DNA from: Pontiella sp.
GTDB lineage: Bacteria; Verrucomicrobiota; Kiritimatiellia; Kiritimatiellales; Pontiellaceae
Assembly (NCBI GenBank): GCA_050290185.1
Contig: JBNKHE010000001.1
Location: forward strand, 386,713 to 450,712
Length of the DNA stretch: 64,000 nt
Direction: 5' to 3'
This document shows positions 10,032 to 63,923 of the stretch, piece after piece. The notes beneath the pieces are model-generated. The model ran no database searches. It was not told the origin of the DNA and saw only the letters and a list, made by a program, of their open reading frames with translations. How positions within the stretch are numbered: position 1 is the stretch's first letter; each line of letters starts with the position of its first letter. The position numbers were made by a program, and so were the translations under genes.

Positions 10032-10035
10032 TCGC

Positions 10036-11016: not shown

Positions 11017-11036
11017 TCTCTGCTATTTCCTACGGT

Positions 11037-12862: not shown

Positions 12863-12866
12863 TTCC

Positions 12867-45121: not shown

Positions 45122-47200
45122 TCATCGCTTTTCCAGCAGGACGGCCCCGCTCTTGTAGGTGGGCTGGAAGGATTCCGGATCAAACGAAGGCAACGTCAAC
45201 CGATTGGTGTCTTCATAGTGCATCGGCAGGAAAACATGGCACCTGGCCATGCCATCCTCAAGAACAGCGATCGCCGGGATCTCCCCGCGCTTCGAACAGA
45301 CGGAAACGGTGTCGCCCTGCTGGATACCGAGTTCGGCGGCATCCAGCGGATTGATTTCCACATACAGTTCTTCGGGCGCCATGCGCCGCAACTTCTCCAC
45401 CTTGCCCGTTCGGCTAAGCGTATGCCATTGCGCCACCGAACCGCGCCCGGTGATGAGCCAAAACGGATAGTCGGCAGAACACTGCTCTTCCGGCTCAGTA
45501 GGTTCGGTGCAGACGAAACGCGCTTTGCCGTCCTGATGAAAAAACCGATGATCGCCAAACAACCGCCGATGGTTGTCTTCCAGGATCGCCCCGGCGGGAA
45601 ACGGCCACTGAATCCCGCCGGCCTGCTCAAGATGCCCATAGCCTTCTATCCCGGTGATATCGCAAGGTTGCCCGGCAGAAATTTTCTGTAGCAACCGGAA
45701 TACGCTTTCCGGATTCTGCCACTCGTCGATCCATTGCCCGCACCCCCATACCTTGGCAATACGCAGGAAGATATCGAAATCCGGCAGGGCCTGTCCCGGC
45801 GGCTCGCACACCTTCCGCACCACGCCGATTCTGCGTTCGGAGTTAATGAAAGTGCCCTCCTTCTCGCTCGAGGCGGCCGCCGGCAGGTACAGATCGGCCA
45901 TCCGGGCCGTCGCCGTGTCGGGATAAATATCCTGCACCACCAGAAAATCCAGCTCCTTGACGATCTCCTCAAATTCGTTCAAGTCGATCCACGTATGGGC
46001 CGGATTGGTGCCTACGATCCACAGCCCCTTGATCACCCCGTTCCGAACCTGTTCGAGGATCTTGTGGTAGGGCAGACTGGACTGGCCGGAAATGCGGCTG
46101 TCGTTGATGTTAAGGAGTGCCGCCACTTTTCGGCGGTGCCGGCGGTCCTCGAAGTCATGCCCGCCGAAGAGATTGGTGGTGTTTGCAAAAAGGCGCGAGC
46201 CCATCGCATTGCACTGCCCGGTGATGGAATTCGCACCGGTTCCCGGTTTGCCTATGTTTCCGGTCATAAGCGCAAGGTTGATGATGGCCTCGGAGGTCTT
46301 TACCCCCTGATGGCTCTGGTTCACCCCCATGGACCACCAGAACGATACACGCTTTCCTTCATGTATGAGCTGTGCAAATTCCTCGATCTGCTCAACCGTC
46401 AGGCCGCATTGATCCGCAACGTGCTTCACGGGGTATTCCGCCACATGGGCGCGGTAGACCGGAAACCCGACGGTATGCCGTTCAATGAAATCGGGATCAA
46501 TCCATCCCCGCTCAATCAAGATATTGGACACCGCGTACAGGAACAGTAAATCGGTCTTGGGTTGCAGCGCAATGTGATGGGACGCCGCCTGGGCTGTTTT
46601 GGTCCTGCGCGGATCGACCACGATCACCTTCGGCTTTTTGCGATTGCTTCGAATCCGGCTCCAAAGAAGAGGATGGGCGACAATGGGATTTGCCCCGATA
46701 AACACAACGACATCCGATTCTTCCAGATCGTTGCAGGCGTAGGGCGGTGCATCGAAACCAAACGCCTGCTTGTAGGCCACCGAGGCCGAAGCCATGCACT
46801 GTCGCGTGTTCCCGTCGCCATGCACCATCCCCATGCCGAACTTGGCCACGGCACCCAGCAGCGCCATCTCCTCGGTGGTGATCTGTCCTGTACTGAGAAA
46901 GGCGACGCTCTCCGGCCCCCATTCCGCCATGATCTCCTTCATGCGGGAAGAAAATACCTCGACGGCTTCATCCCATTCCACCGGTTTGAATCCTTTTTCA
47001 GTCCTGAGCAGGGGTTGCGTACCCCGGTCATCCGACAAAAGCGGTTCGATCAGGTTGAGTCCCTTGTCACAGGCCTTCCCGAGATTGACCGGATAATCGG
47101 ACTTGCCCTGAATCTGGATCGCTCCATCCTTCCGGGAAACCTCAAGGGCGCACCCGATCGAGCAATAGCTGCAGATTGTTGTTTTTGGATCTTTAGACAT
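45122..47200 (-). CDS. Assimilatory nitrate reductase-type Mo-bisPGD catalytic subunit (no Tat signal, no C-terminal BFD domain)
   Basis: CSYCSIGC..CDKG [4Fe-4S]; NTRQCMASA (Cys Mo ligand); GQCNAMG; EKEGTFINSERR; GR...QWHT. Confidence 0.85.
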   Translation of the reverse strand: MSKDPKTTICSYCSIGCALEVSRKDGAIQIQGKSDYPVNLGKACDKGLNLIEPLLSDDRGTQPLLRTEKGFKPVEWDEAVEVFSSRMKEIMAEWGPESVAFLSTGQITTEEMALLGAVAKFGMGMVHGDGNTRQCMASASVAYKQAFGFDAPPYACNDLEESDVVVFIGANPIVAHPLLWSRIRSNRKKPKVIVVDPRRTKTAQAASHHIALQPKTDLLFLYAVSNILIERGWIDPDFIERHTVGFPVYRAHVAEYPVKHVADQCGLTVEQIEEFAQLIHEGKRVSFWWSMGVNQSHQGVKTSEAIINLALMTGNIGKPGTGANSITGQCNAMGSRLFANTTNLFGGHDFEDRRHRRKVAALLNINDSRISGQSSLPYHKILEQVRNGVIKGLWIVGTNPAHTWIDLNEFEEIVKELDFLVVQDIYPDTATARMADLYLPAAASSEKEGTFINSERRIGVVRKVCEPPGQALPDFDIFLRIAKVWGCGQWIDEWQNPESVFRLLQKISAGQPCDITGIEGYGHLEQAGGIQWPFPAGAILEDNHRRLFGDHRFFHQDGKARFVCTEPTEPEEQCSADYPFWLITGRGSVAQWHTLSRTGKVEKLRRMAPEELYVEINPLDAAELGIQQGDTVSVCSKRGEIPAIAVLEDGMARCHVFLPMHYEDTNRLTLPSFDPESFQPTYKSGAVLLEKR

Positions 47201-47231
47201 GGCGGTTCCGCTTTGATTCGCACGCCTAATG

Positions 47232-47247
47232 AGCATCGAGTGTGCCA
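47232..47247 (-). promoter_or_regulatory. Sigma54 promoter (first Mo enzyme)
   Basis: The reverse strand reads TGGCAC-ACTCG-ATGCT. Confidence 0.7.
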
Positions 47248-47788
47248 TCGACCGGTTCCCCAACCGCAAATTGTGCCCCGTACCGTATTCACAAGGAGAT
47301 AGAGAAGTAGATACAAGGCTTTGCTAACCCTTAGTATATGATCATCTACATCATATTTGTTTGTAAAACACCCTCTCGACCACAATTATGTAAAATAGAA
47401 ACCCAGGCAGCAAACCCTGTAAACCGAGGTTTGGCTTAGCAAATTTTCAGCGGCTAGACACCGAGGGAGCATAGCTTTCGAACTCGAAATCGATTCCGTT
47501 CAAGATCGAACACAGCTCGGCCAAGTGTCCTGCATTTTTTCTTTTCGAGATTTTTTTCCGCAATCGCCTTAGCTCAATAGCATTGCCGCAACCACCGCTT
47601 CACATGGGAAACATAGATGTATTTTTCTTGATTCAAAATTCTATTGATTACATTTTTGAACATGTGATTTTTATGTATATCTAATCTCATTATTAATACA
47701 TTTTTGTGTATATATTTTCCATTTTACACAATATCCGTTTTGCCCCTATCTCTCTCTGCTTTTGCTACTTACAGATATTTAAACACGG

Positions 47789-47804
47789 TGGCACAGCATT
47801 TGCA
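47789..47804 (+). promoter_or_regulatory. Sigma54 promoter (nrt operon)
   Basis: TGGCAC-AGCAT-TTGCA, a full consensus match. Confidence 0.85.
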
Positions 47805-47875: not shown

Positions 47876-49246
47876 ATGATGAAAGCTACCAAAAGAACCA
47901 TCCTGAAATCAGGTCTGGCTGCCGCCCTGATTGGCGCCATCCCCGCATTTGGTGCCGTTGACGACAACACCATTCCGTTGGATGTCGAAAAGCCCAATTT
48001 GCATTTCGGCTTCATCAAGCTGACCGACTGCGCTCCGCTGGTGATCGCCAAAGAAAAGGGATTCTTCGAGGCCGAAGGCTTGAACGTCCAGCTGACCGCC
48101 CAGAAGAACTGGGTAATCCTGCTCGACAACGTGATCAAGGGATCGCTTGACGGCGCGCACATGCTGGCCGGACAACCGATCGGAGCCACGGTAGGCGTCA
48201 GCCAGAAGGCCGATATCATCACCGCCTACAGTCTCGACCTCAATGGCAACGGTATCACACTAGCCACCGACATCTGGGAACAGATGAAGAAAAACGTTCC
48301 GGTGGACGCAGACGGCAAGCCGGTCCACCCCATTAGTGCCAGCGCCTTGAAGCCGGTTATCGACAACTGGGAGGGCGACTTCAACCTCGGTATGGTTTTC
48401 CCGGTATCAACCCACAACTATGAAATCCGCTACTGGCTGGCCGCCGGCGGCATCAAGCCCGGCTTCTACACCGAAGCAGATTCCCAGGGCCATACCGGCG
48501 GTGACGTAATCATCTCGCCCAATGCCCCGCCACTGATGCCTTCGTACCTTAACTCGCGCGCCATTCTCGGCTACTGCGTGGGGGAACCCTGGAACCAGAA
48601 GGCCGTATTTGCCGACAAGGAAGGCAAACAGCTCGGCGTTCCCGTGATTACCAACTACGAGATCTGGAAAAACAACCCCGAAAAGGTCTTCGGCGTAACC
48701 AAAGAATGGGCTGAAAAATATCCGCAGACCCACCTGGCCGTACTCAAGGCGCTGATCAGGGCCGGCAAGTGGCTGGATGAATCGATCGAAAACCGCGAGG
48801 AAGCCGTCCAGATCCTGTCCCGCTCGAACTATGTCGGCGCCGAGCCGGAAGTCCTGCGCAACTCGATGACCGGCTCGTTCGTTTACGAGCGCGGTGACCG
48901 GCGCGACATGCCCGACTTCAATGTCTTCTTCCGCTACTACGCGTCCTATCCCTACTACAGCGACTGTGTCTGGTTCCTGACGCAGATGCGCCGCTGGGGC
49001 CAGCTCCGGGATGATAAGCCGGACAGCTGGTACCTCGAAACCGCCAAGGACATCTACCGTCCCGAGCTCTATATGGAAGCCGCACAGCTGCTGATCGAGG
49101 AAGGCAATCTGGCGGAATCCGACATCCCGACCGGCACCGATGGCTTCCGGGCCCCGACCGGCAAGGGCGACTTCATCGACGACAAGGTGTACGACGGCCA
49201 CAAGCCGAACGACTACATCAAGAGCTTCACCATCAGGGCTGAATAA
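47876..49246 (+). CDS. nrtA: NrtA/CmpA-family nitrate ABC substrate-binding protein
   Basis: Signal peptide; [48 protein letters not shown]. Confidence 0.92.
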
Positions 49247-49263
49247 TCTCTCCCCGACCCATG

Positions 49264-49307
49264 CCGGGCCAATCCCGCTTCTCTCTCCTCCGGCGGGATT
49301 GGCCCGG
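49264..49307 (+). other. Strong GC stem-loop after nrtA (probable mRNA-stabilising hairpin)
   Basis: CCGGGCCAATCCCGC ... GCGGGATTGGCCCGG (15-bp perfect stem) with no U-tract. Confidence 0.6.
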
Positions 49308-49324
49308 TGAATAAAAAATAGAGG

Positions 49325-50719
49325 ATGCAACACACCATGCAGAAATTACTCAACTTTTCTGAAAAGACCGGTCTCACCCTGCTGATTCCGATCATTAAAA
49401 TGATCATGAAGGACGAGCCTGAAAAACAGCTCGGCGAGCTGCTCAAGCTGTTACTGCTGCCGATCGTTGGACTCGCCATTTTCTTCGGACTCTGGGGCTT
49501 TGCCTCCACCAGGATCAGCACCAGCGTCGGAGCCCTGCCTTCCCCGGCCTACGTCTGGAGCCAGGCCAAGGCCATGGTGGGCGACGCCCGGGCCGAAAAG
49601 GTGAACAAGAAGGAGTTCGAACGTTACGAGAATGCACGCGCCACCCTATCCGGCCTATTCGAAAAACGCCGCGAACTGGAAGCTGCCGGTGCATCGGCGG
49701 CCACGCTCAAGAAACTCGACGACAAGCGGGCTGACTTCACAAACGATCTTCAGGCGTATGTAGACAAGCTTGGCACCCGCATCGAAACTCTGACCACCCA
49801 GGTGGCGGATGCAGACAAGGCCGCCGAGGAGGCCGGCATTACCGACCGCCGCATCGCCCCCTACAAAACCACCGTCATCCGGGTCTACAAGGACAGCCAC
49901 CATTCACTCGCCAGCCTGCTCAGCAAGAACAAGAAAATATCCGACTGCATTGCCGGCATGGAAACCGCCACCGAAGCCAAGGCGGCAACCCTGGAGAAGC
50001 GGCGCCATGCCTATGAAACCCAGCTCAGCAAACCGCTCGACTACAGCGGAAACGGTTCGATTCTCGACTATGTCAAGCGCAGCATCATTACCGTCATCTT
50101 CGGATTCTTCCTCGCGGCCGTCGTAGCCATCCCGCTCGGCATCCTCTGCGGGCTCAGCAAAAACTTCATGACAGCCGTCAACCCGCTCATCCAGATTTTC
50201 CGGCCCGTATCGCCGCTGGCCTGGGTACTCATCACGATTCAGATCGTCGATGGCATTTTTGTGGGCGACAAGGCCCTCAACGGGGAATTGATCAACAATC
50301 CGTTCCTGCATTCCGCCATCACCGTCGCGCTCTGTTCGCTGTGGGCCACCTTGAGCAACACCGCCCTGGGCGTATCGTCGGTCAGTACGGATTACATGAA
50401 CGTTGCAAAGGTGCTTAAGCTCAGCTGGATTGACCGCATCACCAAAATTGTAATCCCATCTGCCGTACCCTACATCTTCACCGGTCTGCGCATCACACTC
50501 GGCGTCGGCTGGATGGTGTTGATTGTCTCGGAAATGATGGCCACCTCGCGCGGGCTTGGCTGGTATATCGACCAGCAGTACCAGAACAACAAGGTCGAAT
50601 CGCTCGCCAACATTATTGTCTGCATCTTTATCATCGGGATCATCGGGGCCATCCTCGACCGGATCATGTTCATCCTGCACAAGACGGTCAGCTTCAACGA
50701 CGACGAGGTGTCAGCGTGA
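49325..50719 (+). CDS. nrtB: Nitrate ABC permease with a long hydrophilic helical insertion
   Basis: NPLIQIFRPVSPLAW, NTALGV, PYIFTGLRITLGVGWMVLIVSEM. Confidence 0.88.
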   Translation: MQHTMQKLLNFSEKTGLTLLIPIIKMIMKDEPEKQLGELLKLLLLPIVGLAIFFGLWGFASTRISTSVGALPSPAYVWSQAKAMVGDARAEKVNKKEFERYENARATLSGLFEKRRELEAAGASAATLKKLDDKRADFTNDLQAYVDKLGTRIETLTTQVADADKAAEEAGITDRRIAPYKTTVIRVYKDSHHSLASLLSKNKKISDCIAGMETATEAKAATLEKRRHAYETQLSKPLDYSGNGSILDYVKRSIITVIFGFFLAAVVAIPLGILCGLSKNFMTAVNPLIQIFRPVSPLAWVLITIQIVDGIFVGDKALNGELINNPFLHSAITVALCSLWATLSNTALGVSSVSTDYMNVAKVLKLSWIDRITKIVIPSAVPYIFTGLRITLGVGWMVLIVSEMMATSRGLGWYIDQQYQNNKVESLANIIVCIFIIGIIGAILDRIMFILHKTVSFNDDEVSA

Positions 50720-50773
50720 CGATTGAAACGTGAGGCGTGATCAATTCACGTTTCACGGATCACTTTTCACGAA
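50716..50773. repeat. Inverted heptamer-repeat element
   Basis: GTGACGA TTGAAAC GTGAGGC GTGA ... TCACGTT TCACGGA TCACTTT TCACGAA. Confidence 0.6.
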
Positions 50774-50786
50774 TAAAGGAACTTTT

Positions 50787-51656
50787 ATGAGCACAGTATT
50801 GGAAGTCAAGAACGTCAATAAGAACTTCGGCAACAACGGTCATACGGCCGAGGTGCTGCACGACATCAACCTGAGCCTCGACAAGGGTGAATTCGTAGCC
50901 ATTGTCGGCTTTTCAGGAACCGGAAAAACCACGTTGATCAACCTGCTCGGCGGCTTGGAAAAACCCACATCCGGCGAGGTGCTTTGCAAGGGCAAACCCG
51001 TCACCGGACCAGGTCCTGAACGCGGCATCATCTTTCAGAACTACTCATTGATGCCGTGGCTCACCGTGCGCGGAAATGTTGCCGTGGCGGTTCACGAAAC
51101 CCGCAAGGATCTACCCGTGGCCAAACGTAAAAAAGTGGTCGAAAAATATGTGGAAATGGTCAACCTCACCCCCGCCATCGATAAACGGCCCGGCGAACTT
51201 TCGGGTGGCATGCGTCAGCGCGTATCCGTGGCACGCGCGCTATCGATGAACCCCGAAATCCTACTGATGGACGAACCGCTCAGCGCCCTCGATGCCCTGA
51301 CCCGCGCCGTGCTGCAGGATCAGATTCTCGAAATCTGGCGAAAGGAAAAAAAGACTGTCGTGCTCATCACCAACGATGTCGATGAAGGCATCATGATGGC
51401 CGACCGCATCATTCCGCTGAACATGGGCCCGAAGGCCACGCTCGGACCTTCCTTTCCGGTGGACATCGAACGTCCGCGCAACCGCAAGACCATGAACCAT
51501 GATCCGCACTTCAAGCGCATTCGAAACGACGTGAACTTCTACCTCAACGAACAGCGCCGCAAGCACAAGGAGATCGCCGACCTGACCAGCAAGCCCGCCA
51601 CGGTCCTACCGGACATCCAGCCCGCGCACATGAACAAGGAATTTGCATGGAGATAA
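50787..51656 (+). CDS. nrtC: Nitrate ABC ATP-binding protein
   Basis: GFSGTGKT, FQNYSL.PWL, LSGGMRQR, MDEP. Confidence 0.88.
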   Translation: MSTVLEVKNVNKNFGNNGHTAEVLHDINLSLDKGEFVAIVGFSGTGKTTLINLLGGLEKPTSGEVLCKGKPVTGPGPERGIIFQNYSLMPWLTVRGNVAVAVHETRKDLPVAKRKKVVEKYVEMVNLTPAIDKRPGELSGGMRQRVSVARALSMNPEILLMDEPLSALDALTRAVLQDQILEIWRKEKKTVVLITNDVDEGIMMADRIIPLNMGPKATLGPSFPVDIERPRNRKTMNHDPHFKRIRNDVNFYLNEQRRKHKEIADLTSKPATVLPDIQPAHMNKEFAWR

Positions 51657-51762
51657 CGAAACGTGAAAATTTTTACAGGTGGAGAACATATGAAAAGAAT
51701 AATCACGACTCAACCGTCACTCATCACGAACCTAAAACCTAATACTTAGCACTTAATACTGA
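51657..51762. repeat. Degenerate heptamer-repeat intergenic element
   Basis: TCACGAC TCAACCG TCACTCA TCACGAA followed by CCTAAAA CCTAATA CTTAGCA CTTAATA. Confidence 0.45.
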
Positions 51763-51772
51763 ACACTCCCCT

Positions 51773-52597
51773 ATGAAATCCTACATCCATACCCACTATC
51801 TGGATCTTGTGAACCTCTGCAAGATATACCCCACCAAGAAGGGGCCGTTCACCGTTCTGGAAGAATTCAATCTCCAGGTGGTCGAAGGCGAGTTTGTCTG
51901 CCTCATCGGCCACAGCGGTTGCGGCAAGTCCACCATCCTCACGATGGTGGCCGGACTGAACGAAATCAGCAAAGGCAATGTATCCCTGGCCGGACATGAA
52001 ATCGATGGCGCCGGCCCCGAACGCGCCGTGGTCTTCCAGTCCCCCAGTCTGTTGCCCTGGCTGACGGCCTACGAAAATGTCATGCTCGGCGTGAAGCAGG
52101 CGTTTTCCGATGCGACCAAGAAACAGCGCGACCAGATCGTGCGCTACTATCTCGAATCGGTCGGGCTCGGCGATAACATGGACAAGAAGCCCACCGAACT
52201 TTCGCAGGGCATGTGCCAGCGCGTCGGCATCGCTCGCGCCTTTGCCTTAAAACCCAAGCTGATGATCCTCGACGAACCGCTCGGCATGCTCGACGCGCTC
52301 ACCAAGCAGGAATTGCAGGATCTGTTCGTCAAGCTCCACGCCGAACACCAGCTTACCACCCTGATGGTGACCCATGATGTCGACGAGGCGCTCTACCTCT
52401 CCGATCGCGTCGTGATGATGACCAACGGACCGAATGCGACGCTCGGCGACATTCTCGAGAATACCCTGCCGCGCCCCCGCATCCGCGAAGAGATCATGGC
52501 CCACCCGGACTATTACAAACACCGCGATTACCTCATCGATTTTCTGGAAGATCAGGATCATCAGGCTGAGTTGAAAAAAACCGGAACCGAAGACTAA
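51773..52597 (+). CDS. nrtD: Nitrate ABC ATP-binding protein
   Basis: IGHSGCGKST, LSQGMCQRVG, LDEP, VTHDVDEA, MMTNGP. Confidence 0.9.
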   Translation: MKSYIHTHYLDLVNLCKIYPTKKGPFTVLEEFNLQVVEGEFVCLIGHSGCGKSTILTMVAGLNEISKGNVSLAGHEIDGAGPERAVVFQSPSLLPWLTAYENVMLGVKQAFSDATKKQRDQIVRYYLESVGLGDNMDKKPTELSQGMCQRVGIARAFALKPKLMILDEPLGMLDALTKQELQDLFVKLHAEHQLTTLMVTHDVDEALYLSDRVVMMTNGPNATLGDILENTLPRPRIREEIMAHPDYYKHRDYLIDFLEDQDHQAELKKTGTED

Positions 52598-52626
52598 CAC
52601 GTTCAAACCAAAGGAGAACCTAACCA

Positions 52627-53856
52627 ATGAATACCAAAACCCGCATCGTAATTGCTGCAGCAACTCTTGGACTGGCATCTGCCGGACACGCCGAAAACGG
52701 CGTTGAGTTGTTCCAGAGCATCATGTCGCAGACCAACAACACGCTTATTCCAATGCTGGATTGGCGCGCCCGTTATGAATATGGCGACCAGGACAATCTC
52801 GAATCCGCGCATGCCGCTACACTGCGGGCCCGCATAGGATTGCAGTCGCAGGACTACAGCGGATTCAGCGGACTCGTTGAATTCGAGGCCACCCGGGCCA
52901 TCGACTCGACGGGCTACCGCGCCGCCAACGTGCATGGCGATCCGGCCAGGACCGTCATTGCCGATCCGGAAAGTACGGAACTCAACCGCGCCCAGCTGCA
53001 GTTCAGCCGCAACAACAACCTGCTGATCGGTGGCCGCCAGCGCATCATCCTCGACAATGCCCGCTTCATCGGAAACGTCGGCTGGAGACAGAACGAACAG
53101 ACCTATGACGGGGTGTCCTACAAAAACACCATGGTTGAAGATCTGTCGTTGTACTATGCCTATCTATCCCGCGTGAACCGCATCTTCGGATCCGATGCAC
53201 CCAAGGGCACGGGCACGGACGATTTCGATTCTGATTCGCAGTTGATCAACGTGGCCTACAGCGGACTCGAAGGGCAGAAGCTCGCCGCCTATGCCTACCT
53301 GCTCGACTTCGACAACTCCGCCGCCAACTCCTGCAACACGTACGGCATCAGCTATGCCATAAAAGGCAAGGTGGCCGAGGATTACGCGCTCAACGGGTAT
53401 GCTGAGTTTGCCTACCAGGAAGGCGCTGGAGACAACATCGATTATTCCGCTCCCTACCTGCACCTGAACGGAAAGGTTGCCCGCAAGGGCTATTTCGCCC
53501 TGCTGGGATACGAACTGCTCGGCTCCGACGACGGCATGATCGGCTTCAAAACGCCGCTGGCTACCGCACATGCGTTCAACGGCTGGAACGACCAGTTCCT
53601 GGGAACGCCGGCGAATGGCCTGCAGGATCTCTACCTCGGGTTCGGCCTTCCCGTACCGAAGGTTCCGGTGAAGTTCTTCTACCACAAGTTTTCCTCGGAT
53701 GAAAATTCCATGGACTACGGGCAGGAATTCGATGCCGTGGCGGTGCATAAGATCAGCCCGAAAATGAAGGCCATTGCCAAGGCTTCCTACTACGATGCGG
53801 ACGAATTCAGCGTCAACCGCACCCGTTTTTCAGTGGAACTGGATTATAAATATTAA
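52627..53856 (+). CDS. Alginate-export-family outer-membrane beta-barrel (putative nitrate porin)
   Basis: Signal peptide; GRQRIILDNARFIGNVGWRQNEQTYD; FKTPLATAHAFNGW; C-terminal aromatic residue (DYKY). Confidence 0.8.
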   Translation: MNTKTRIVIAAATLGLASAGHAENGVELFQSIMSQTNNTLIPMLDWRARYEYGDQDNLESAHAATLRARIGLQSQDYSGFSGLVEFEATRAIDSTGYRAANVHGDPARTVIADPESTELNRAQLQFSRNNNLLIGGRQRIILDNARFIGNVGWRQNEQTYDGVSYKNTMVEDLSLYYAYLSRVNRIFGSDAPKGTGTDDFDSDSQLINVAYSGLEGQKLAAYAYLLDFDNSAANSCNTYGISYAIKGKVAEDYALNGYAEFAYQEGAGDNIDYSAPYLHLNGKVARKGYFALLGYELLGSDDGMIGFKTPLATAHAFNGWNDQFLGTPANGLQDLYLGFGLPVPKVPVKFFYHKFSSDENSMDYGQEFDAVAVHKISPKMKAIAKASYYDADEFSVNRTRFSVELDYKY

Positions 53857-53874: not shown

Positions 53875-53902
53875 GGCCGGCGGCGAGGATGCGCCGCCGG
53901 CC
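53875..53902 (+). other. GC stem-loop after the porin gene
   Basis: GGCCGGCGGCG-AGGATG-CGCCGCCGGCC. Confidence 0.55.
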
Positions 53903-53923: not shown

Positions 53924-55927
53924 ATGAAGAAAGATCCCATGGACACAGCATCCTCCCCCGCATCCGATCCAGTGATTGTCGTGGGCAACGGAATGGTCGG
54001 TCACCGCTTCTGCCGTTCCTTCAGAAACCTGGATACCGCCACACCCGTAATCGTGCTGGGCAAGGAACCCGAACCGGCCTACGACCGCGTCAACCTGACC
54101 AGGCTGGTGCTTGAACCGAAACGCGAATCCCTTTATCTCGACCCAACCGATTGGTACGCCGACCACAACATCGAGCTACGGCTGGGCGAATCGGCCGGGT
54201 CCGTCGATACCGCCGCAAGAACCGTAACCACGTCCAGCGGCGAAACCCTGAACTATGGCAAACTGGTCGTGGCCAGCGGCTCCACGCCGTGGATGCCGCC
54301 CATCCCCGGCGCGGATGGAGCTTCCGTTTTTCCCTACCGCACCATGGAGGACATCGACAACATCCGGCAGGCCGCCGCATCCGGGCGAAGCGCCGCGGTG
54401 ATCGGCGGAGGCCTCCTGGGGCTCGAAGCCGCCGAAGCGCTTCAGCAACTGGGGCTCACCGTCCACGTTTTGGAAATCGCCGACTATCTCATGCCGCAAC
54501 AGCTCGATGCCGAAGGCGGCATTATGCTCAAGGAAGAGATTTCCCTGATGGGCATCTATGTCCGCACCCGCTGCCAGACCCTGGAAATCGTCGACCTCAA
54601 CGGTCGCAAGGAACTGCGCTTTGCCGACGGTTCGGCACTGCAGTGCGACTTTGTTGTGATCTCCGCCGGCATTCGACCGGAAACCGCCTTTCTCAACCAC
54701 ACCCCGCTGGAACGCAATCCCAACAACGCCATTGTCGTCAACGAGGGCATGGAAACCAGCGCCCCCCACGTGTACGCCATCGGCGAATGCGCCACCTTCA
54801 AAGGCACCGTCTACGGACTGGTCGCCCCCGGCTATCAGATGGCCGATACCCTGGCCAGCCGCCTATCGGATGCCAAAGCCTCCTTCACGGGAACCGATCT
54901 CAGCGCCCGACTCAAGGTCATGGATGTTCCGGTGGCGGCACTGGGCGACTACCACCAGGCCGAAGCCGTCTCGCAAACCCTCGTCTACTCGAAGATCGGG
55001 CCAAGATCGACCTCCTGCTACCGCAAACTGATCCTCTGCAAACGGCGCGTCATCGGCATCATGGCGGTAGGCCGGTGGGATAATCTTCCGGCCATCGAGA
55101 ATGCGATGGCCTCCGGACTCAAACTTTCCTGGAAACAGCTTCGACACTTCGAGGAGTCCGGCGAACTCTTCACCGCTGGCAAGGATCCGGCCGTACTGCA
55201 CTGGTCGCCGGATACCAAGGTCTGCAACTGCATGATGGTCAAGAAGGCCACGCTGATCGAGGCCATCAATGAAGGCTGCAGAACAGTTGAAGATTTGCAG
55301 GCCCGCACCCTGGCAGGTACGGTCTGTGGCAGTTGCAAGCCGGTGCTGGGCGATCTCGTGGGAGCGCCTTCCCTGCCGGTCCGGATGCCCAAGTCGGCCA
55401 TTGCCGTACTGTCCTGCTCGCTTCTGTCCATGTTTGGTGTCTGCGCCACCGTGTTTGGTGCACCCATGACCTATGCCGACTCGGTCGAGGATTACTGGTA
55501 CCATGTCGACCAGCTGTGGCGGAGCGGCGTGTTGAAACAGATCTCCGGCTACACGCTGCTCGCGCTCTGCCTCTTTGCGTTATGGCTTTCCGTCCAGAAA
55601 CGCTTCGCGTCCCTGAAGCTTGGCAACTATTCCGTCTGGCGCGCCATCCACACGGCCACCGGACTGCTGACGCTGGGACTGCTTTTCGTACACACCGGCT
55701 TCCACCTCGGTGCCAACTTCAATTCATGGCTCATGCTCACCTTCGCCCTGCTCAATCTGGTGGGCGGCGTGTCCGGTGTTTTCAGCGGATTGGAAACGAA
55801 GACGGATTCGGGTATCGGCCTATTGAGCCGTCGTCTCAAGCCGGTCGCGACCTGGGCGCACATCCTTCTCTTCTGGCCCATTCCGACCCTCGTGATGTTC
55901 CACATAATTTCGGTGTACTACTGGTGA
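53924..55927 (+). CDS. NirB/NasB-like NAD(P)H:FAD oxidoreductase fused to a BFD [2Fe-2S] domain and a putative di-heme-b membrane domain
   Basis: VVGNGMVG, AYDR, GGGLLGLEAA, YAIGEC; CNC...CGSC; hydrophobic C-terminus with His576/His590 and His646/His660. No siroheme domain. Confidence 0.8.
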   Translation: MKKDPMDTASSPASDPVIVVGNGMVGHRFCRSFRNLDTATPVIVLGKEPEPAYDRVNLTRLVLEPKRESLYLDPTDWYADHNIELRLGESAGSVDTAARTVTTSSGETLNYGKLVVASGSTPWMPPIPGADGASVFPYRTMEDIDNIRQAAASGRSAAVIGGGLLGLEAAEALQQLGLTVHVLEIADYLMPQQLDAEGGIMLKEEISLMGIYVRTRCQTLEIVDLNGRKELRFADGSALQCDFVVISAGIRPETAFLNHTPLERNPNNAIVVNEGMETSAPHVYAIGECATFKGTVYGLVAPGYQMADTLASRLSDAKASFTGTDLSARLKVMDVPVAALGDYHQAEAVSQTLVYSKIGPRSTSCYRKLILCKRRVIGIMAVGRWDNLPAIENAMASGLKLSWKQLRHFEESGELFTAGKDPAVLHWSPDTKVCNCMMVKKATLIEAINEGCRTVEDLQARTLAGTVCGSCKPVLGDLVGAPSLPVRMPKSAIAVLSCSLLSMFGVCATVFGAPMTYADSVEDYWYHVDQLWRSGVLKQISGYTLLALCLFALWLSVQKRFASLKLGNYSVWRAIHTATGLLTLGLLFVHTGFHLGANFNSWLMLTFALLNLVGGVSGVFSGLETKTDSGIGLLSRRLKPVATWAHILLFWPIPTLVMFHIISVYYW

Positions 55928-55936
55928 TTTTTTCTC

Positions 55937-57310
55937 ATGGAATTGTTTAATAAGAAAGGATTGATCTGGATGGTCTGGATCGCCGCCAGCCTGGTCGGGA
56001 CCGGCATGCTCGCCCGCAAAATGTTTGCCGGCGAAGACAAGCGCATGTTCCTGCCCGGACAGACGACCGCCGGCCACTACCAGATCGAGCTGCGCTGCGA
56101 CGAATGCCATACGCCGGGCATGGGCGTAAAGCAGGATGCCTGCATCCGCTGCCATGGAGAGGAACTTAAAACCGCGCACGACTCCCATCCCAAGGCCAAG
56201 TTCGACGACCCCACCAAAACCTACCTCCTCAAGCAGATCAAGGCCGACGAATGCATCTCCTGCCACATCGAACACAACGCCGACACCACGCATCCCATGG
56301 GTGTGACCGTTCCGCTGAACTACTGCGCCTTCTGCCATCAGGAGGTGGGCGATAACCGTCCCTCGCACAAGGGACTCGGCTTCAAAACCTGCGCCACGGC
56401 GGGGTGCCACAACTTCCACGACAACCGCGCCCTCTACGAACGCTTCCTCCAGCAGCATGCCGATGAACCGGCCCTGCTGACCAACCAAGTAGCCCAAGTG
56501 CTCGATGAGCCGCGTAGTTTTGGCGATGCGCTAACCGTCGGCGATATGGATGCCCCCAAGAGCCACGAAGGAAACGAGTCTGTGCAGCAGGAATGGGCGG
56601 ACAGCGTCCATGCCAAGCAGGGGGTCAACTGCACCGCCTGCCACAACGTGCCCGACGACGCCGGAAACCTGGCCTGGACCGATCATCCGGCACCGGCCGC
56701 CTGTGCCGGTTGCCACAAGGAAAACACAGAGGGCTGGATGACCGGCCGCCACGGCATGCGCGTGGCCGAAGGGCTTTCGCCCATGACGCCCGCCATGGCC
56801 CGCCTGCCCATGCAACCGCATTCGCTGCACCGCGAACTCGATTGCTCTTCCTGCCACGGCGCGCACGGCTACGACACGCGCTACGCCGCAGTCGACGCCT
56901 GCCTGGAATGCCATGCGGACAAACACTCGCTGGCCTACAAGAACACGGCCCATTTTGATCGGTGGAAACAGGACGCGGACCATGGCGTCTCCTGCGCCAC
57001 CTGCCACATGCCGCGCATGGAAAACGAAGACGGTCGCGTCATCGTCCAGCACAACCAGAACGACAACCTGCGCCCCAACGAAAAGATGATCCGCAGTGTG
57101 TGCATGGATTGCCATGGCGTCGAATTCAGCCTGCAGGCACTGGCCGATCCGTCGATGGCGGACGCCTGCTACGAGGGACCACCCGCCGCCGACCTTGAGA
57201 CCATGGAGATGATCCGTACCCGCATGGTTGAGATTGAGGAACGAAGAAAACGCATCGCCGAACGGCAGGCGCAAGCACAGGCCAACGGCATCGATGAAGA
57301 CGATCTGTGA
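55937..57310 (+). CDS. Exported multiheme cytochrome c (10 CxxCH plus 1 CX4CH)
   Basis: CDECH, CIRCH, CISCH, CAFCH, CATAGCH, CTACH, CAGCH, CSSCH, CLECH, CATCH, CMDCH; N-terminal hydrophobic anchor or signal. Confidence 0.9.
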   Translation: MELFNKKGLIWMVWIAASLVGTGMLARKMFAGEDKRMFLPGQTTAGHYQIELRCDECHTPGMGVKQDACIRCHGEELKTAHDSHPKAKFDDPTKTYLLKQIKADECISCHIEHNADTTHPMGVTVPLNYCAFCHQEVGDNRPSHKGLGFKTCATAGCHNFHDNRALYERFLQQHADEPALLTNQVAQVLDEPRSFGDALTVGDMDAPKSHEGNESVQQEWADSVHAKQGVNCTACHNVPDDAGNLAWTDHPAPAACAGCHKENTEGWMTGRHGMRVAEGLSPMTPAMARLPMQPHSLHRELDCSSCHGAHGYDTRYAAVDACLECHADKHSLAYKNTAHFDRWKQDADHGVSCATCHMPRMENEDGRVIVQHNQNDNLRPNEKMIRSVCMDCHGVEFSLQALADPSMADACYEGPPAADLETMEMIRTRMVEIEERRKRIAERQAQAQANGIDEDDL

Positions 57311-57355
57311 ACGAGAAGGCGGCAAGTGCCGCAACTAACCAAAAGGAGCAAGAAA

Positions 57356-57955
57356 ATGAAGGCAATGAAATGGATCCCCGCAACCATGGCCGTAGGAACA
57401 ATCGCCTTGCTGGCAACCCAGACCGGCTGTGAGGAAAAGGCCAGCGCCTCGAGCGGCATCGATCCGAAGATCGTGGCCGACAGCCTGTTCACGGTCATGG
57501 AGGCCGACCGGGCATCGTACACCAAGCACGTCATCAAGCGCGTGAAGGCCGAGGGCGCGATTGACGCAAACGAATACTGGGAGGACAGCGGAAACAAAGA
57601 CCTGCCCCTGCCGGCCCAGATGTTCCGCATGGCCGCCGAGCGTGCCAAGGGTTCAAAGCACAACTCCGCCGGATTCTTCTACCAGCTGAAATCGCCCTGG
57701 CCCATTAACAAGCAGAACAAGCCCGTCACCGACGTGGAAAAGGAAGGATTCGACTTCATCGTGGCCAACAAAGGTGCTGAACCGTTCTATGCGGAGGAAA
57801 CGCTCGACGGCAAAAAATACTTCACGGCCATCTATGCCGATGTCGGTGTCTCCTCGGCCTGCATCAACTGCCACAACGCACATGCAGATACACCGAAGAG
57901 CGACTTTGCCTTGGGCGATGTCATGGGTGGTGTGGTGCTGCGATTCCCTATGTAA
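57356..57955 (+). CDS. DUF3365/Tll0287-like monoheme c lipoprotein
   Basis: Lipobox-like TQTGC; LPLPAQMFR; WPINKQN.P; ACINCHN; GDVMGGVV. Confidence 0.75.
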   Translation: MKAMKWIPATMAVGTIALLATQTGCEEKASASSGIDPKIVADSLFTVMEADRASYTKHVIKRVKAEGAIDANEYWEDSGNKDLPLPAQMFRMAAERAKGSKHNSAGFFYQLKSPWPINKQNKPVTDVEKEGFDFIVANKGAEPFYAEETLDGKKYFTAIYADVGVSSACINCHNAHADTPKSDFALGDVMGGVVLRFPM

Positions 57956-57980: not shown

Positions 57981-58441
57981 ATGATCAATCCATTCAAGAA
58001 AAAACCGAAACCCGAAGCACCTGCGGGACTGCCCAGCGAAGAACAGGTCAAGCTGGTCCAGGAGAGCTGGGCCATGGTCGAACCCATCGCGGATACGGCC
58101 GCCGAGCTGTTTTACGGCCGCCTCTTCGAGACCGCTCCCGAGGTCAAACCGCTTTTCTCGGGCGATATGAAGGCGCAGGGAAAGAAACTGATGTCCATGA
58201 TCACCGTGGCCGTCAAAGGGCTGTCCAACCTCGAAGCGATCGTGCCTGCCGTTCAGGATCTGGGAAAGCGGCATGTCGCATACAACGTTAAGGAAGAGCA
58301 CTACGCCGCCGTGGGTTCCAGTCTGCTATGGACCTTGGAACAGGGACTGGGAGATAAGTTCACTCCCGATACCAAAGAGGCATGGACCACGGTTTATGGC
58401 CTTCTCGCCACGACCATGATTGACGCCACCAAAACCGCTTA
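57981..58441 (+). CDS. Single-domain globin (flavohemoglobin-like globin family)
   Basis: VQESW, FYGRLFE.AP...PLF, QG.KL, LGKRH..Y.V..EHY..VG..LL.TL, AW..VY. Confidence 0.9.
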
Positions 58442-58465
58442 ACACGGGGTTTTTCGACGCTACAG

Positions 58466-58765: not shown

Positions 58766-60457
58766 ATGAATCTACCTACCAACACCAATAATGGATGCTG
58801 CGGTGGTGGTTGCTCGGGAAACAAACCCAAGGCGGAAACGCTTCCCAAGCCACGCAAGCGATCCCCTGTCGAGAAACCGGACATTGTCGGCTTTCGCACG
58901 GAAGGCCGCGAATCGCAAACCCGTTTCCACTTCCATATGGATCTGTGCATCGGCTGCCACGCCTGCGAAGTCGCCTGCGCCGAGCAGAACAACCTGCCCG
59001 CCGACACCCAGTGGCGCCGGGTCGGCGAGGTGCAATCCGGAACCTTCCCCGACACCCAAAGCTTTTTTCTTTCCAGCGGTTGCAACCACTGCCTTGACGC
59101 CGCCTGCGCCAAGGGGTGCCCGGTCGACGCCTACGAGGTGAACGATAAAGGCATCGTGATCCACAAGGACGACGTCTGCATCGGTTGCGGCTACTGCACC
59201 TGGAATTGCCCCTACGGCGTTCCAACCCTGCAGGAAGATCGCCGCATCGTGACCAAATGCGACCTGTGCCACAACCGCTTGGCGGACGGACAAGATCCCG
59301 CCTGCGTGGCCGCCTGCCCCGCCGGCGCAATCACGGTCGAGACAGTGCCGATCGAACAGATCTATGAGGAATACATGGAATCGGGAATCGGCCCCGACAT
59401 GCCGTCGCCAAACATCACCATTCCGTCCACCAAGATCACCCTGCCCAAAGGCATGGACGTGGAAGCCTTCACCAAGGTGGACCAGCCGTTCGTGAAACCC
59501 GAGCATCCGCATTCGCCGCTTATTGTAATGACGGTCCTGACCCAGCTCGGCTTCGGCGGTTTCTGCACGGTGTTCGTGGCGGACCTGATCCGCACCTTCT
59601 TCTTCGACACCGCAGCGCTCGGCAATGTGCTCGGCTGGCTGGCCCCCACCCTCATGGGCATTGTCGGTATGTCCCTGGCCGCATCGACCCTCCATCTGGG
59701 CCGGCCGATCTATGCCGGCCGCGCGCTCAAGGCCTGGAAGACATCCTGGCTGTCGCGCGAAGTGCTGGGCCTTTCCGCTTTCGCGGGCGCGGCCATGACC
59801 TATGCCGCGGTCCTGCTGGCAACGGAAGGATTCAAGCTGTTCGATGTCGGCCTCATCGGCGGCAATCTGGTTCGCTTGGCGATTGGTTCCGGCACCGTGG
59901 TCTGCGGCATTGCCGGCATCTACTGCAGCTCGATGCTCTACCGCGTCCCGGCCCGTCCGGCCTGGGACAGTCGGAAGACCACTATCGACTTCTTCGACGT
60001 CGCCGCGATGCTGGGACCCGTGGCTTTCATCGTCGCCGCCATGGTGGCCATTCTGATTGCCGGCCACCCGATCGGATTCCTGACGGGCGCCATGCAGGCC
60101 GCCGCACTGTTTGCCGCTCTGGCCTTCGTGTTCAAGCACACCAAGAATGCCTACATCATCAAGAAGTGGCTGGAGTCGGACACGCATGAGCTCAAGGCCA
60201 GCGCCGAAATGCGCATGAAAAACTTCTACCGCCTGCGCATGATCCGCAACACCATCGGCATCGCCGGAATGTTTGCGCTGATCCCCTTCATGGCCGAGAC
60301 TTCGCTGCCCGCCGGCGGCAAGCTGGCCATGGCCATGCTGGCCCTGTTGCTGTTCATGGCCGTCAGCTTCATCAATCGCTACATCTTCTTCGTCACCGTG
60401 GTGCCGCGCAACATTCCCGGCAACTACCTCGTCGCTTCCAAGAGCGAGGCGCATTAA
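58766..60457 (+). CDS. DmsB-like 4x[4Fe-4S] domain fused to a DmsC/YnfH-type membrane anchor
   Basis: CIGCHACEVAC, CNHCLDAACAKGCP, CIGCGYCTWNCP, CDLC..ACVAACP; L..TVLTQ, STLHLGRP, SWLSREV, RYIFF; about 8 TM segments. Confidence 0.88.
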   Translation: MNLPTNTNNGCCGGGCSGNKPKAETLPKPRKRSPVEKPDIVGFRTEGRESQTRFHFHMDLCIGCHACEVACAEQNNLPADTQWRRVGEVQSGTFPDTQSFFLSSGCNHCLDAACAKGCPVDAYEVNDKGIVIHKDDVCIGCGYCTWNCPYGVPTLQEDRRIVTKCDLCHNRLADGQDPACVAACPAGAITVETVPIEQIYEEYMESGIGPDMPSPNITIPSTKITLPKGMDVEAFTKVDQPFVKPEHPHSPLIVMTVLTQLGFGGFCTVFVADLIRTFFFDTAALGNVLGWLAPTLMGIVGMSLAASTLHLGRPIYAGRALKAWKTSWLSREVLGLSAFAGAAMTYAAVLLATEGFKLFDVGLIGGNLVRLAIGSGTVVCGIAGIYCSSMLYRVPARPAWDSRKTTIDFFDVAAMLGPVAFIVAAMVAILIAGHPIGFLTGAMQAAALFAALAFVFKHTKNAYIIKKWLESDTHELKASAEMRMKNFYRLRMIRNTIGIAGMFALIPFMAETSLPAGGKLAMAMLALLLFMAVSFINRYIFFVTVVPRNIPGNYLVASKSEAH

Positions 60458-60470
60458 ACTGGATTTTTCC

Positions 60471-62654
60471 ATGATCAAGAAAATCAAACATCTCATCGGA
60501 CTCGACATCAAGGAAGAGGAATACGCTTACGGCCATGATCCGGAGCACGGCTACCTCTCCAAGAGCAAGATTCCCGACCGCTGGGTCAAATCCACCTGCG
60601 GCTACTGCAGCGTCGGCTGCGGTATGCTGCTCGGCGTCAAGGACGGCAAGATCATCTCCGTACGCGGCGACAAGAACCACCCGGTCAACGAAGGAGATCT
60701 TTGCCCCAAGGGACTCAGCGAACACTATCCCGTTTCCAGCCCGGACCGCGCCGTATCCCCGCTGATCAAGCAACCCGACGGATCGTTCAAGGAAGCGAGC
60801 TGGGACGAAGCCTACGACCGCATGGTGAACACGGTTCGCGACGTGCAGGAAAAACACGGTCCCGAAAGCTTTGGAGTGCTCTCCACCGGCCAGCTGCTGA
60901 CCGAGGAATTCTATGCCCTCGGCAAGCTCGTCCAGCTGGGCTTCGGCACCAACAACTATGACGGCAATACCACGCTTTGCATGTCGTCCGCCGTCGTCGG
61001 CTACAAGCAGAGCTTTGGCTCCGACGGACCGCCCGGATCCTACAAGGGCCTCGCCACCGCCGACATCATCTTTCTGACCGGTGCCAACATTGCCGACAAC
61101 CATCCGATCCTCTGGCACCACATCCGCAAGAACAAGGATTTCAAGCTCATCGTCTGCGACCCGCGGAAAAGCAAAACCGCCATGCTCGCCGACCTCTATC
61201 TGCCGCTCAAGCCGCGCCGCGACATCGACCTGCTCAACGGCCTGATCCATCTCGTCATCAAGAACGGCAAGGTGGACCAGGACTACATCGACAAGCACAC
61301 CACCGGATACGAAGAGTTGTGCAAACACGCCGAGCCATTCGACCTCGCCACCACCGTCGAGCGCACCGGCATTTCCGAGGAAAAAATTCTCGAAACCTAC
61401 GAAGCCATCGCCAACGGAAAGAACGTCTTCTTCGGCTGGACCATGGGCATCAACCACAGCACGCAGGGATCCGACACCGTCAGCCTCATCAACACCCTCG
61501 CGCTGATCACCGGAAACATTGGCCGGACCGGTGCCGCGCCCATGAGCATTACCGGCCAGTGCAACGCCATGGGTTCGCGCGAATTCAGCTTTTCCTCCTC
61601 CATGCCCGGCTACCGTAAGTTCGAGAGCGCCGCCGACCGCAAGGAGCTGGCCGAACTGTACAACATCGACGAAAGCCTCTTCCCCACCGAGCGCGGCGGA
61701 AACTATCCGCAGATCATCGACGGCATCCTCGAAGGCAAAATCAAGGCCCTGTGGGTGATCGCCACCAACCCGCTCGTCAGCTTCCCCGACCAGGCGCGCC
61801 TGAAGGAAGCCCTCGCCAAGCTCGAAATCCTGGTCGTGCAGGACGGCTTCCATCCGACGCCCACCACCGAGCTCGCGGACATCGTGCTGCCGGCGGCCAT
61901 CTGGGGCGAAAAGGACGGCATGTATACCAACTCCGAACGACGTGCCTCGCGTGCCAACGCCGCCGTCCCGCCGCCCGGCCTCGCGCGCTCCGATTTCCAG
62001 ATCTGCATGGACCTCGCCGACAAGCTCGGCAAGAAGGAAATGCTCTTCCCCGGCTGGACGCGCTCCGAGGATTCGTTCGAGGAAATCCGGAAAATTTCAA
62101 ACGGTCGCCTGTGCGACTACAGCGGCATGACCGTTGAAAAGATGATGGACAAAGGCGGGCTCCAATGGCCCTGCAACGAAGAAAATCCCGATGGCTCCGA
62201 CAGCCTCTATACCGATGGCGTTTTCAAGCACGAGGACGGCAAGGCCAAGCTGCTTTTCACCACATCCGAGGAACTTCCCGAAGACGTCGACGGCAGCTAC
62301 CGCCTCATCCTCAACACCGGCCGGACCGTCGAGCAATGGCATACCGGAACCAAGACGCGCAACGTCGCGCTCTTGAACAAGCTTTCCCCCGAAGCGTGGG
62401 TGGAAGTAAACCCGAAAACCGCCGCCTATTACGGCATCGGCCCGCACGACCGCGTATCGCTGGTATCGCGCCGCGGCCGCGTCGACGACCTGATGGTGCG
62501 CATCGCCGAAACCATCCATCCCGACCACGTCTTCATGCCGTTCCACTTTGCCGAAAAATGCATCAACAAACTGACCGTTCCGGCCTTCGACCCAAAATCA
62601 GGCGAACCCAACTACAAGCAGTGCGCCGTGATGCTGGAACGCTACGACGGTTGA
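60471..62654 (+). CDS. Second nitrate reductase-type Mo-bisPGD catalytic subunit (no Tat signal)
   Basis: CGYCSVGC..CPKG; NTTLCMSSA; GQCNAMGSR; EKDGMYTNSERR; NTGRTVEQWHT; DPKSGEPNYK. Confidence 0.87.
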   Translation: MIKKIKHLIGLDIKEEEYAYGHDPEHGYLSKSKIPDRWVKSTCGYCSVGCGMLLGVKDGKIISVRGDKNHPVNEGDLCPKGLSEHYPVSSPDRAVSPLIKQPDGSFKEASWDEAYDRMVNTVRDVQEKHGPESFGVLSTGQLLTEEFYALGKLVQLGFGTNNYDGNTTLCMSSAVVGYKQSFGSDGPPGSYKGLATADIIFLTGANIADNHPILWHHIRKNKDFKLIVCDPRKSKTAMLADLYLPLKPRRDIDLLNGLIHLVIKNGKVDQDYIDKHTTGYEELCKHAEPFDLATTVERTGISEEKILETYEAIANGKNVFFGWTMGINHSTQGSDTVSLINTLALITGNIGRTGAAPMSITGQCNAMGSREFSFSSSMPGYRKFESAADRKELAELYNIDESLFPTERGGNYPQIIDGILEGKIKALWVIATNPLVSFPDQARLKEALAKLEILVVQDGFHPTPTTELADIVLPAAIWGEKDGMYTNSERRASRANAAVPPPGLARSDFQICMDLADKLGKKEMLFPGWTRSEDSFEEIRKISNGRLCDYSGMTVEKMMDKGGLQWPCNEENPDGSDSLYTDGVFKHEDGKAKLLFTTSEELPEDVDGSYRLILNTGRTVEQWHTGTKTRNVALLNKLSPEAWVEVNPKTAAYYGIGPHDRVSLVSRRGRVDDLMVRIAETIHPDHVFMPFHFAEKCINKLTVPAFDPKSGEPNYKQCAVMLERYDG

Positions 62655-63068: not shown

Positions 63069-63923
<855 letters not shown>

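Follow-up and report, generated by a model that had tools for sequence, protein, structure and literature searches.

Proteins of the HAO family carry their active site on heme 4, a five-coordinate heme with a CxxCH motif of its own (PMC8042395), and both loss and grafting of hemes have been documented within the larger HAO/multiheme clan (PMC9250108). Bradyrhizobium encodes, inside a nitrate-assimilation operon, the globin-flavoprotein pair Bjgb-Flp, which detoxifies the nitric oxide (NO) that nitrate reductase generates (PMC4724949), and a 2026 preprint leaves open the function of stand-alone sCache_heme proteins (10.64898/2026.02.01.703092). Here we describe a locus of Pontiella sp. in which relatives of these components are encoded side by side. 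It lies in a stretch of 64,000 nucleotides (contig JBNKHE010000001.1, positions 386,713 to 450,712 of the forward strand; hereafter the window), where four plus-strand genes encode a flavoprotein with a membrane domain (A), an 11-heme cytochrome c (B), an exported monoheme protein (C) and a globin (D). All parts of this module belong to known families, and A, B and C very probably form a membrane-spanning redox module that leads from NADH to the periplasm. Whether the module and its cytoplasmic globin remove or recycle NO or related reactive nitrogen beside nitrate assimilation, alongside NirB/NirA, is to our minds an evenly balanced proposition; its substrate, the direction of electron flow and the formation of a complex are what we infer below. 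The four-gene module is widespread in bacteria and apparently undescribed. Close-match patterns alone located 358 loci in GTDB species genomes, clustering its homologues at 90% identity gives no fewer than 3,640 protein clusters, from several phyla, cultured carriers include Alcanivorax, Spongiibacter, Cerasicoccus, Neptuniibacter and Luteolibacter, and no description of it was found in the literature searched, most subscription papers lying outside that search. Locus counts given per 80 refer to the best 80 of the 358 loci.

Subunits A, B and C

The initial annotation had read A (667 aa; 53924..55927) as a NirB-type FAD/NAD(P)H domain followed by a single BFD cluster and, with no siroheme domain, a hydrophobic C-terminus bearing two pairs of His residues 14 apart, and profile searches and a conservation check agree with it throughout. 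The flavin domain occupies residues 17-400 and the [2Fe-2S] cluster residues 434-471; the NirB model TIGR02374 matches residues 18-480 only, scoring 430.8 bits against a cut-off of 578 and stopping at model position 466 of 794, Pfam places one Fer2_BFD domain at 433-477 (C434/C436/C468/C471), and no siroheme domain was found in Pfam and NCBIfam profile searches. Over its first 485 residues (about 490 aa), A is 35% identical to the NirB of its own genome. The remainder, a cytochrome b-like membrane domain (residues 490-666; 55391..55921), is modeled as five long helices, two of which each carry two His residues within the 13-14 spacing by which di-heme b proteins are recognized: H576/H590 and H646/H660 are 14 apart within each pair, and all four are invariant in 79/79 homologues. 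Judging from this invariance, A would bind two b hemes. The basic loops that follow helices 2 and 4 would place H576 and H646 near the cytoplasm and H590 and H660 near the periplasm, so that one His pair would sit near each membrane face, as in a transmembrane di-heme b carrier. Matches of this domain to cytochrome b families are weak: among 72 members, Ni_hydr_CYTB was hit in 20, Ferric_reduct in 11 and DUF4405 in 42, with best E values of 5e-4 to 7e-4, and all three families fall under the cut-off for the window's own A. A PDB profile search with the membrane domain returned no credible sequence match to a solved structure, Atlas matches to it were all <0.9, and the lists from two fold searches with A were taken up by matches to its flavin domain.

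Nine base pairs downstream begins B (457 aa; 55937..57310), which is, as the initial annotation held, a membrane-anchored 11-heme cytochrome c. An N-terminal hydrophobic anchor (residues 8-26) is followed by ten CxxCH motifs and one atypical Cx4CH (C152-H158; 56390..56410), which belongs to heme 5 and is invariant in 80/80 close homologues; in a set of 69 more distant homologues, 14 carry 11 CxxCH motifs, a plain one standing where Cx4CH would be, which supports the count of 11 hemes. Five c3/c7-like hemes precede a six-heme HAO-like core. The heme motifs all end in His in 80/80 close homologues, CxxCK was found in neither the 80 close nor the 69 distant ones, and the Cytochrom_C552 model (PF02335) matches just 48 residues of B, at model positions 241-283 of 438. 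The HAO-like half (residues about 220-415; 56594..57181) was recognized by alignment and by structure alike. In hhalign, a profile of the C-terminal half reached 98.4% against 16 HAO-family proteins (E 5e-15, 209 columns), and each of the 16 sequences taken individually reached 96.9-98.1% over 192-210 columns. Foldseek lists HAO-family structures in its first eight rows, and in a wider structure search three HAO-family entries and the octaheme protein 4qo5 rank first, over residues about 200-415. The last six hemes of B stand in register with HAO hemes 2, 3, 5, 6, 7 and 8, and the fourth HAO motif faces a Cys-free stretch; within this segment (residues 261-302), Cys was found in none of the 80 close homologues and in 1 of the 69 distant ones, an aberrant sequence. 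The long C-terminal region after heme 8 of HAO forms the trimer helices, and B is shorter there, with 37-65 residues after its last heme versus 147-199 in the 16 HAO-family proteins. Eleven His outside the motifs are kept in distant homologues, one per heme. With the heme-4 motif lost and 11 conserved spare His available for 11 hemes, the simplest reading is that B serves as a wire without an open heme of its own, its ligation being deduced from these counts; the initial annotation had cast B as the catalyst, a role that the missing CxxCK and heme-4 motifs and the tally of spare His speak against.

Several observations weigh against this view of B. Three unrelated multiheme proteins of the source genome reach 96.6-97.3% in hhalign, over shorter spans (147-175 columns), the best of these controls attaining 97.3% over 171 columns; the Foldseek matches to HAO have E values of 0.01 or worse, none significant at 0.001; structural Z scores against the HAO family are middling (5.9-7.3); a conserved Met384 could serve as heme ligand instead of a His; and one conserved His follows heme 9, presumably where HAO has its active-site His. 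The N-terminal half is poorly modeled, with a predicted local distance difference test (pLDDT) score <50 over residues 101-130 and 152-163, and Atlas matches for B carry automatic names only. One homologue (P0089, 831 aa) joins a major facilitator superfamily (MFS) transporter to a B-like protein, either as a real fusion or as a gene-calling artefact.

The HAO-like core could be taken to mean that the periplasmic part is oxidative, acting on hydroxylamine or NO as HAO does and delivering electrons to cytochrome c or quinone, with the flavin head serving the globin only. A cytochrome c is co-encoded at some loci, and at L039, L041 and L044 A consists of the membrane domain alone and no globin is present; both observations speak for such a scheme. 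We nevertheless hold it to be decidedly improbable because B lacks the catalytic heme motif and the long C-terminal region of HAO and because nearly all remaining loci of the 80 have flavin head and membrane domain joined in one protein; in addition, the redox potentials are such that oxidation of NO or hydroxylamine cannot reduce NAD+, and this favors an outward flow of electrons.

C (57326..57955) and the globin gene after it extend the unit beyond the A-B pair, which is real but was all that had been recognized initially. It is an sCache_heme (Tll0287/DUF3365) monoheme lipoprotein with a probable start at Met11 (57356) and a lipobox-like Cys35, and it matches PF11845 with 60.2 bits against a cut-off of 24.1. 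Its alignment of 52 sequences has 35 invariant columns, among them Arg62, Tyr65, Arg72, Glu83, a PAQMFR stretch, Tyr119 and Tyr170; the CxxCH motif is invariant in 52/52, and no Cys was found between helix 1 and CxxCH in any of the 52, so the distal Cys ligand of the Tll0287 type was not found. Mean column identity is 54% for C, compared with 50% (B) and 44% (A) from alignments whose membership differs. A signaling sCache_heme member that likewise has no such Cys binds NO tightly (10.64898/2026.02.01.703092), and C is a candidate for the catalytic or terminal subunit, likelier than B. Counting against an NO-reactive C, Met99 or Met200 could close the heme site, and the one characterized stand-alone sCache_heme protein binds NO weakly, behaves like a carrier and has a carrier-like potential of +123 mV (same source). 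In a complex prediction that combined B (residues 30-440), the membrane domain of A, C and two hemes, and was made without folded controls, C scored 0.24 against a mark of 0.32, a value that argues neither for nor against C as a partner.

These carrier-like properties are part of the argument for a module that is a general redox valve, an outlet for electrons from NADH that would discharge to class I cytochrome c, an oxidase, peroxide or O2, would be co-regulated with nitrate assimilation and would use its globin as an O2 carrier. B appears fully ligated, 30/80 loci also encode a monoheme class I cytochrome c, and some carriers have no nitrate assimilation (see below). An outlet of this kind, however, leaves the NsrR-like neighbors, the swap between two NO-reactive globin types and the invariant polar residues of C unexplained, and we think it improbable.

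Returning to the removal or recycling of NO, we posit the following sequence of events in what are mostly aerobic or microaerobic nitrate-assimilating bacteria. NAD(P)H would be oxidized by the FAD of A and its electrons passed to the [2Fe-2S] cluster, both domains being present and their chemistry that of their families; two bis-His b hemes, for which the invariant His speak, would take the electrons across the membrane; and B, with 11 probably bis-His hemes and the catalytic motif gone, would act as wire and electron store on an HAO-like core. C, devoid of a Cys ligand and rich in invariant Arg, Tyr, Asp and Glu residues, would supply an open heme at which NO (or nitrite) is reduced. In the cytoplasm, by analogy with Bjgb-Flp, the globin would convert NO to nitrate with O2 and be re-reduced by the flavin head of A or by another reductase, and the nitrate would reenter assimilation. 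The path from NAD(P)H through FAD, [2Fe-2S] and di-heme b to an exported multiheme cytochrome c had been proposed in the initial annotation and gains support from the invariant His and from the position of the membrane domain of A directly upstream of B in 80/80 loci. The alternative of NO or hydroxylamine as substrate, which the initial annotation gave in brackets, may still apply. A bolder version, which we offer tentatively and rate as possible rather than likely, makes ABC a split HAO-like, NADH-driven periplasmic NO or nitrite reductase, possibly yielding ammonium, in which C supplies the active site; in aerobic bacteria it would draw on cytoplasmic NADH by way of the fused cytochrome b and need no siroheme, quinol or copper. 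If true, the split enzyme would constitute a new enzyme class, and with the globin it could enable cells to detoxify NO while also gaining nitrogen from it.

Nitrite reductases in the source genome and in other carriers

No siroheme nitrite reductase is encoded in the window, as had been noticed at the outset, and from this it had been inferred that A and B stand in for the missing enzyme; whether the pair excludes nirBD across genomes had been suggested as a check. Genome searches support neither replacement nor exclusion. The source genome (95.5% complete, 0.09% contamination) has three NIR_SIR matches, all on contig C9, where a 969-aa NirB-NirD fusion (G000:C9:130912-133821) passes both cut-offs (1015.9 vs 578; 100.9 vs 74.65); it also encodes NrfH and an NrfA-type pentaheme protein on contig C4, siroheme-pathway genes on contig C8 and a cbb3-like oxidase subunit on contig C7. 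A canonical enzyme of this kind elsewhere in the genome was, provided that it accounts for growth on nitrite, what the initial annotation had named as speaking against its own reading. We surveyed 50 of the 80 best module-bearing genomes, chosen mainly for longer contigs. Full NirB is present in 27 and a NirA-family protein over the cut-off in 13 of the other 23, so that 40/50 have NirB or NirA; three further genomes have a NirA-like gene, under the cut-off, beside a nitrate reductase. An NAS-like enzyme occurs in 41/50, and 40 of these 41 also have NirB, NirA or a NirA-like protein (37 over the cut-off, 3 below). Among 36 genus relatives, nine have full NirB, in open frames about as large as that of the fusion, and two have the module, and both carriers have NirB, which in one of them is cut by a contig end. 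The idea that the module replaces NirB/NirA is thus rejected: it is an addition alongside normal NirB/NirA, and no substitute.

As such an addition, ABC might still be a siroheme-free, NADH-driven periplasmic nitrite-to-ammonium reductase that backs up NirB/NirA, forms the sole route where these are absent and relies on the globin to mop up leaked NO. Seven of the 50 genomes have no NirB, NirA or NirA-like match; an 11-heme store would suit a six-electron reaction; B is related to the HAO/ONR/NrfA clan; and the setting is one of nitrogen acquisition, with NasT, Nrt, a sigma54 site and, beside the module at L078:12050-15848, urease and urea transporter genes. The absence of CxxCK is not decisive in this regard, since a His-ligated catalytic heme can reduce nitrite (PMC13562315). 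We regard this reading as doubtful, given that the source genome has both NirB-NirD and NrfHA, that NirB or NirA is retained by most carriers, including those of the genus, that only 1 of the 41 NAS-positive genomes is without any NirB, NirA or NirA-like match and that B has no catalytic heme motif.

Further features of the source genome deserve mention. The NirB-NirD fusion adjoins open reading frames (ORFs) that read like molybdate transport and molybdenum cofactor (Moco) genes. A stand-alone NirB head of 484 aa with FAD and one BFD domain (G000:C5:247742-249196; L015:7743-9197) is a candidate diaphorase of the NasB/NasC type, and stand-alone NirB-head matches of similar size recur in the genus. 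A second fragment of gene A, with 72% DNA identity, fills a contig of 536 bp (G000:C123:1-536) and probably comes from a related strain. On contig C8, the middle of a 712-aa protein (G000:C8:157440-159578; L020:748-2886) passes the CobA/CysG methyltransferase cut-off, and its ends presumably correspond to HemC and HemD; the surrounding region (G000:C8:158000-185900) combines siroheme and cytochrome c maturation genes with large multiheme cytochromes of up to 19 CxxCH motifs. Together with a pair of 20- and 24-heme cytochromes (G000:C3:175909-179515), this cluster possibly serves extracellular electron transfer.

Globin, gene neighborhood and regulation

D (57981..58442), identified by Pfam/NCBIfam and PDB matches, is a single-domain globin of the flavohemoglobin/Vgb/Cgb type, a type that we take to be that of NO dioxygenases. 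Its top PDB matches are globin domains of hemoglobin-like flavoproteins (E 8e-32) and chains of the Vgb and Cgb type; it falls into the flavohemoglobin clade, has neither a reductase domain nor an export signal, and conserves FY, F, Q and H at positions that presumably equal B10, CD1, E7 and F8. C is present in 76/80 loci and a globin in 63/80, of the single-domain type in 51 and truncated in 12, two unrelated types that take turns in this position and never occur together. When a metagenome search was started from C and loci with enough flank were counted, B was found upstream in 66/67, A in 42/42 and a globin in 48/60 informative loci. NasT/Nrt/NAS markers accompany 34/80 loci (NasT in 12/80; NrtA near the module in 29/80), an Rrf2 regulator adjoins the module in 14/80, and the five Rrf2 proteins examined of these 14 all score best to NsrR. 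The handling of NO or nitrite is proposed on the strength of the NO-dioxygenase-type globins, the NsrR-like neighbors and the NasT/Nrt context. Among 51 module-bearing genomes, flavohemoglobin (3/51), NirK (5/51) and NrfA (8/51) are uncommon.

This proposal has to contend with opposing evidence. No globin is found in 17/80 loci, some of them on short contigs. The NsrR scores (122-142) lie under the cut-off of 182, RirA scores nearly as high in 4 of the 5 proteins, and 12 of the 14 Rrf2 cases belong to one Opitutales clade, leaving about three independent cases, their independence judged with a quick tree of B used solely for that end. The source genome already encodes Hcp, on contig C13. Six of the 50 genomes surveyed have neither NAS nor a nitrite reductase, and the module is thus not confined to nitrate assimilators. 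No NsrR-like regulator was found in the window, and a scan with an NsrR-box pattern gave no consistent sites. Cytochrome c maturation genes adjoin the module in 5/80 loci; in the flanks of 26 loci without nitrate markers, no further shared partner was found besides cytochrome c, cytochrome c maturation genes and globins, in a scan that covered 81 proteins against NCBIfam (76 of 155 picked plus the five Rrf2 proteins) and 56 of the 155 against Pfam.

Individual loci add variations. Beside the module lie a THAP4-like heme beta-barrel at L057:6658-7233 and, at L091:12317-14089, a pair of truncated globins and, after them, a ferredoxin reductase. The nearest B homologues of the source genome are mostly Pontiella records. 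One record titled Roseibium (L021) has the same gene order and a B that is 100% identical to that of the window and that the B tree places within the Pontiella clade; the contig was likely mis-binned, or the locus transferred very recently.

The nitrate-assimilation island reported initially is largely borne out: the window encodes NarK, NrtABCD and two NAS-type Mo enzymes and contains Moco genes, and the porin remains putative, as it has no Pfam or NCBIfam match. Neither NAS enzyme has a flavin domain, and the soluble part of A has the layout of a diaphorase; A could therefore be viewed as a membrane-bound diaphorase of the NasB/NasC type that serves nitrate reductase, with B and C incidental. 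We judge this very improbable because A travels with B (80/80) and not with NAS (12/80), because contig C5 encodes the separate soluble NirB head described above and because the downstream NAS has a DmsBC-like partner of its own.

The nrtABCD genes, assigned by Pfam/NCBIfam, and the putative porin gene (47876..53856) lie upstream of A on the same strand and form context outside the conserved core. A sigma54-type -24/-12 site, a consensus match only, precedes nrtA (47789..47803, plus strand), and the window holds two exact sites of this type versus 0.11 expected. On the strength of the site before nrtA, sigma54 control of the module, as claimed initially, is plausible. The site itself is exact, but it lies 6 kb upstream of A, and a perfect 11-bp GC-rich hairpin without a T-run, read from the plus-strand sequence in the interval between the porin gene and A (53875..53902), intervenes; this hairpin directly before A and the other regulators at many homologous loci weigh against such control. 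A terminator scan did not list the hairpin, and the sigma70 and terminator scans of the window performed at chance level.

Several neighbors of the module are of interest in themselves. At 58766-62654, a fusion of a 4Fe-4S protein with a DmsC-type membrane anchor lies ahead of the second NAS-type Mo enzyme, which hints that this nitrate reductase is quinol-linked; the other NAS-type gene, on the minus strand (45122-47269), encodes a protein 39% identical to the downstream NAS. Directly after the island, nifH (63099-63923) has a near-consensus sigma54-like site upstream, and the ORFs beyond it (G000:C1:451542-463692) read like what we take to be further nif genes; removal of NO beside nitrogenase genes would make sense. 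A PP2C phosphatase-Ser/Thr kinase fusion is encoded beside narK (43313-45046), and L053, L068 and L076 likewise pair narK with the kinase close to the module. Farther away, a sugar-modification cluster (5636-13904) encodes NeuB, a cytidylyltransferase, a DegT-type aminotransferase, a sulfotransferase, an ATP-grasp protein and a pyridoxal phosphate (PLP) decarboxylase.

Comparison with known systems

Database names do not reflect these distinctions: homologues of A are called 'nitrite reductase (NADH) large subunit' and those of B 'NrfA-nitrite reduction protein'. Judged by defining features, A does not qualify as NirB, nor B as NrfA or HAO; through mislabelled homologues of both, metagenomic nirB and nrfA counts can come out too high. 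If the module handles NO or nitrite, it would represent an unrecognized nitrogen-cycle system in aerobic heterotrophs. B exemplifies, in nature, a multiheme core from which the catalytic heme has been lost, and a stand-alone sCache_heme subfamily now has a fixed operon context and hence a testable job. No description of a donor path from NADH to a periplasmic multiheme protein was found in the literature searched, most subscription papers being outside it.

The closest relatives each share one portion of the module and differ in the rest. Like NirB/NirD, A has an FAD/NAD(P)H head and the first BFD cluster, but it lacks the second BFD domain, the siroheme/[4Fe-4S] domain and NirD and has a five-helix di-His membrane domain instead. 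A also resembles ferric reductase/NOX and cytochrome b561 in joining a cytoplasmic flavin domain with a membrane domain that holds two pairs of His, 14 apart; unlike ferric reductase/NOX, its flavin domain is of what we take to be the glutathione-reductase type, with a [2Fe-2S] relay, rather than of the FNR type. The last six hemes of B are collinear with those of the HAO family (HAO, the reductive HAOr Kustc0458 and IhOCC), which also provides its best structural matches, whereas the CxxCH of catalytic heme 4 is missing, the tail is short, and B has a membrane anchor and, at its N-terminus, five additional hemes. With NrfA/ONR and NrfH, B shares the character of a membrane-anchored periplasmic multiheme protein and local heme-pair motifs, yet it has neither CxxCK nor a full Cytochrom_C552 domain, and its donor would be NADH via cytochrome b, not quinol. 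C is exported and has PF11845 with a C-terminal CxxCH, as do Tll0287 and those sCache_heme proteins that stand alone; in contrast to Tll0287, to which it aligns with an E value of 0.54, it has no distal Cys (0/52) and has fixed operon partners. Finally, the narK-bjgb-flp-nasC genes of Bradyrhizobium likewise associate a single-domain globin and an NAD(P)H flavoprotein with nitrate assimilation, but, where Bjgb-Flp is described as cytoplasmic, the flavoprotein of the module is NirB-type and membrane-fused and has two further partners, an 11-heme protein of the periplasm and an sCache_heme lipoprotein.

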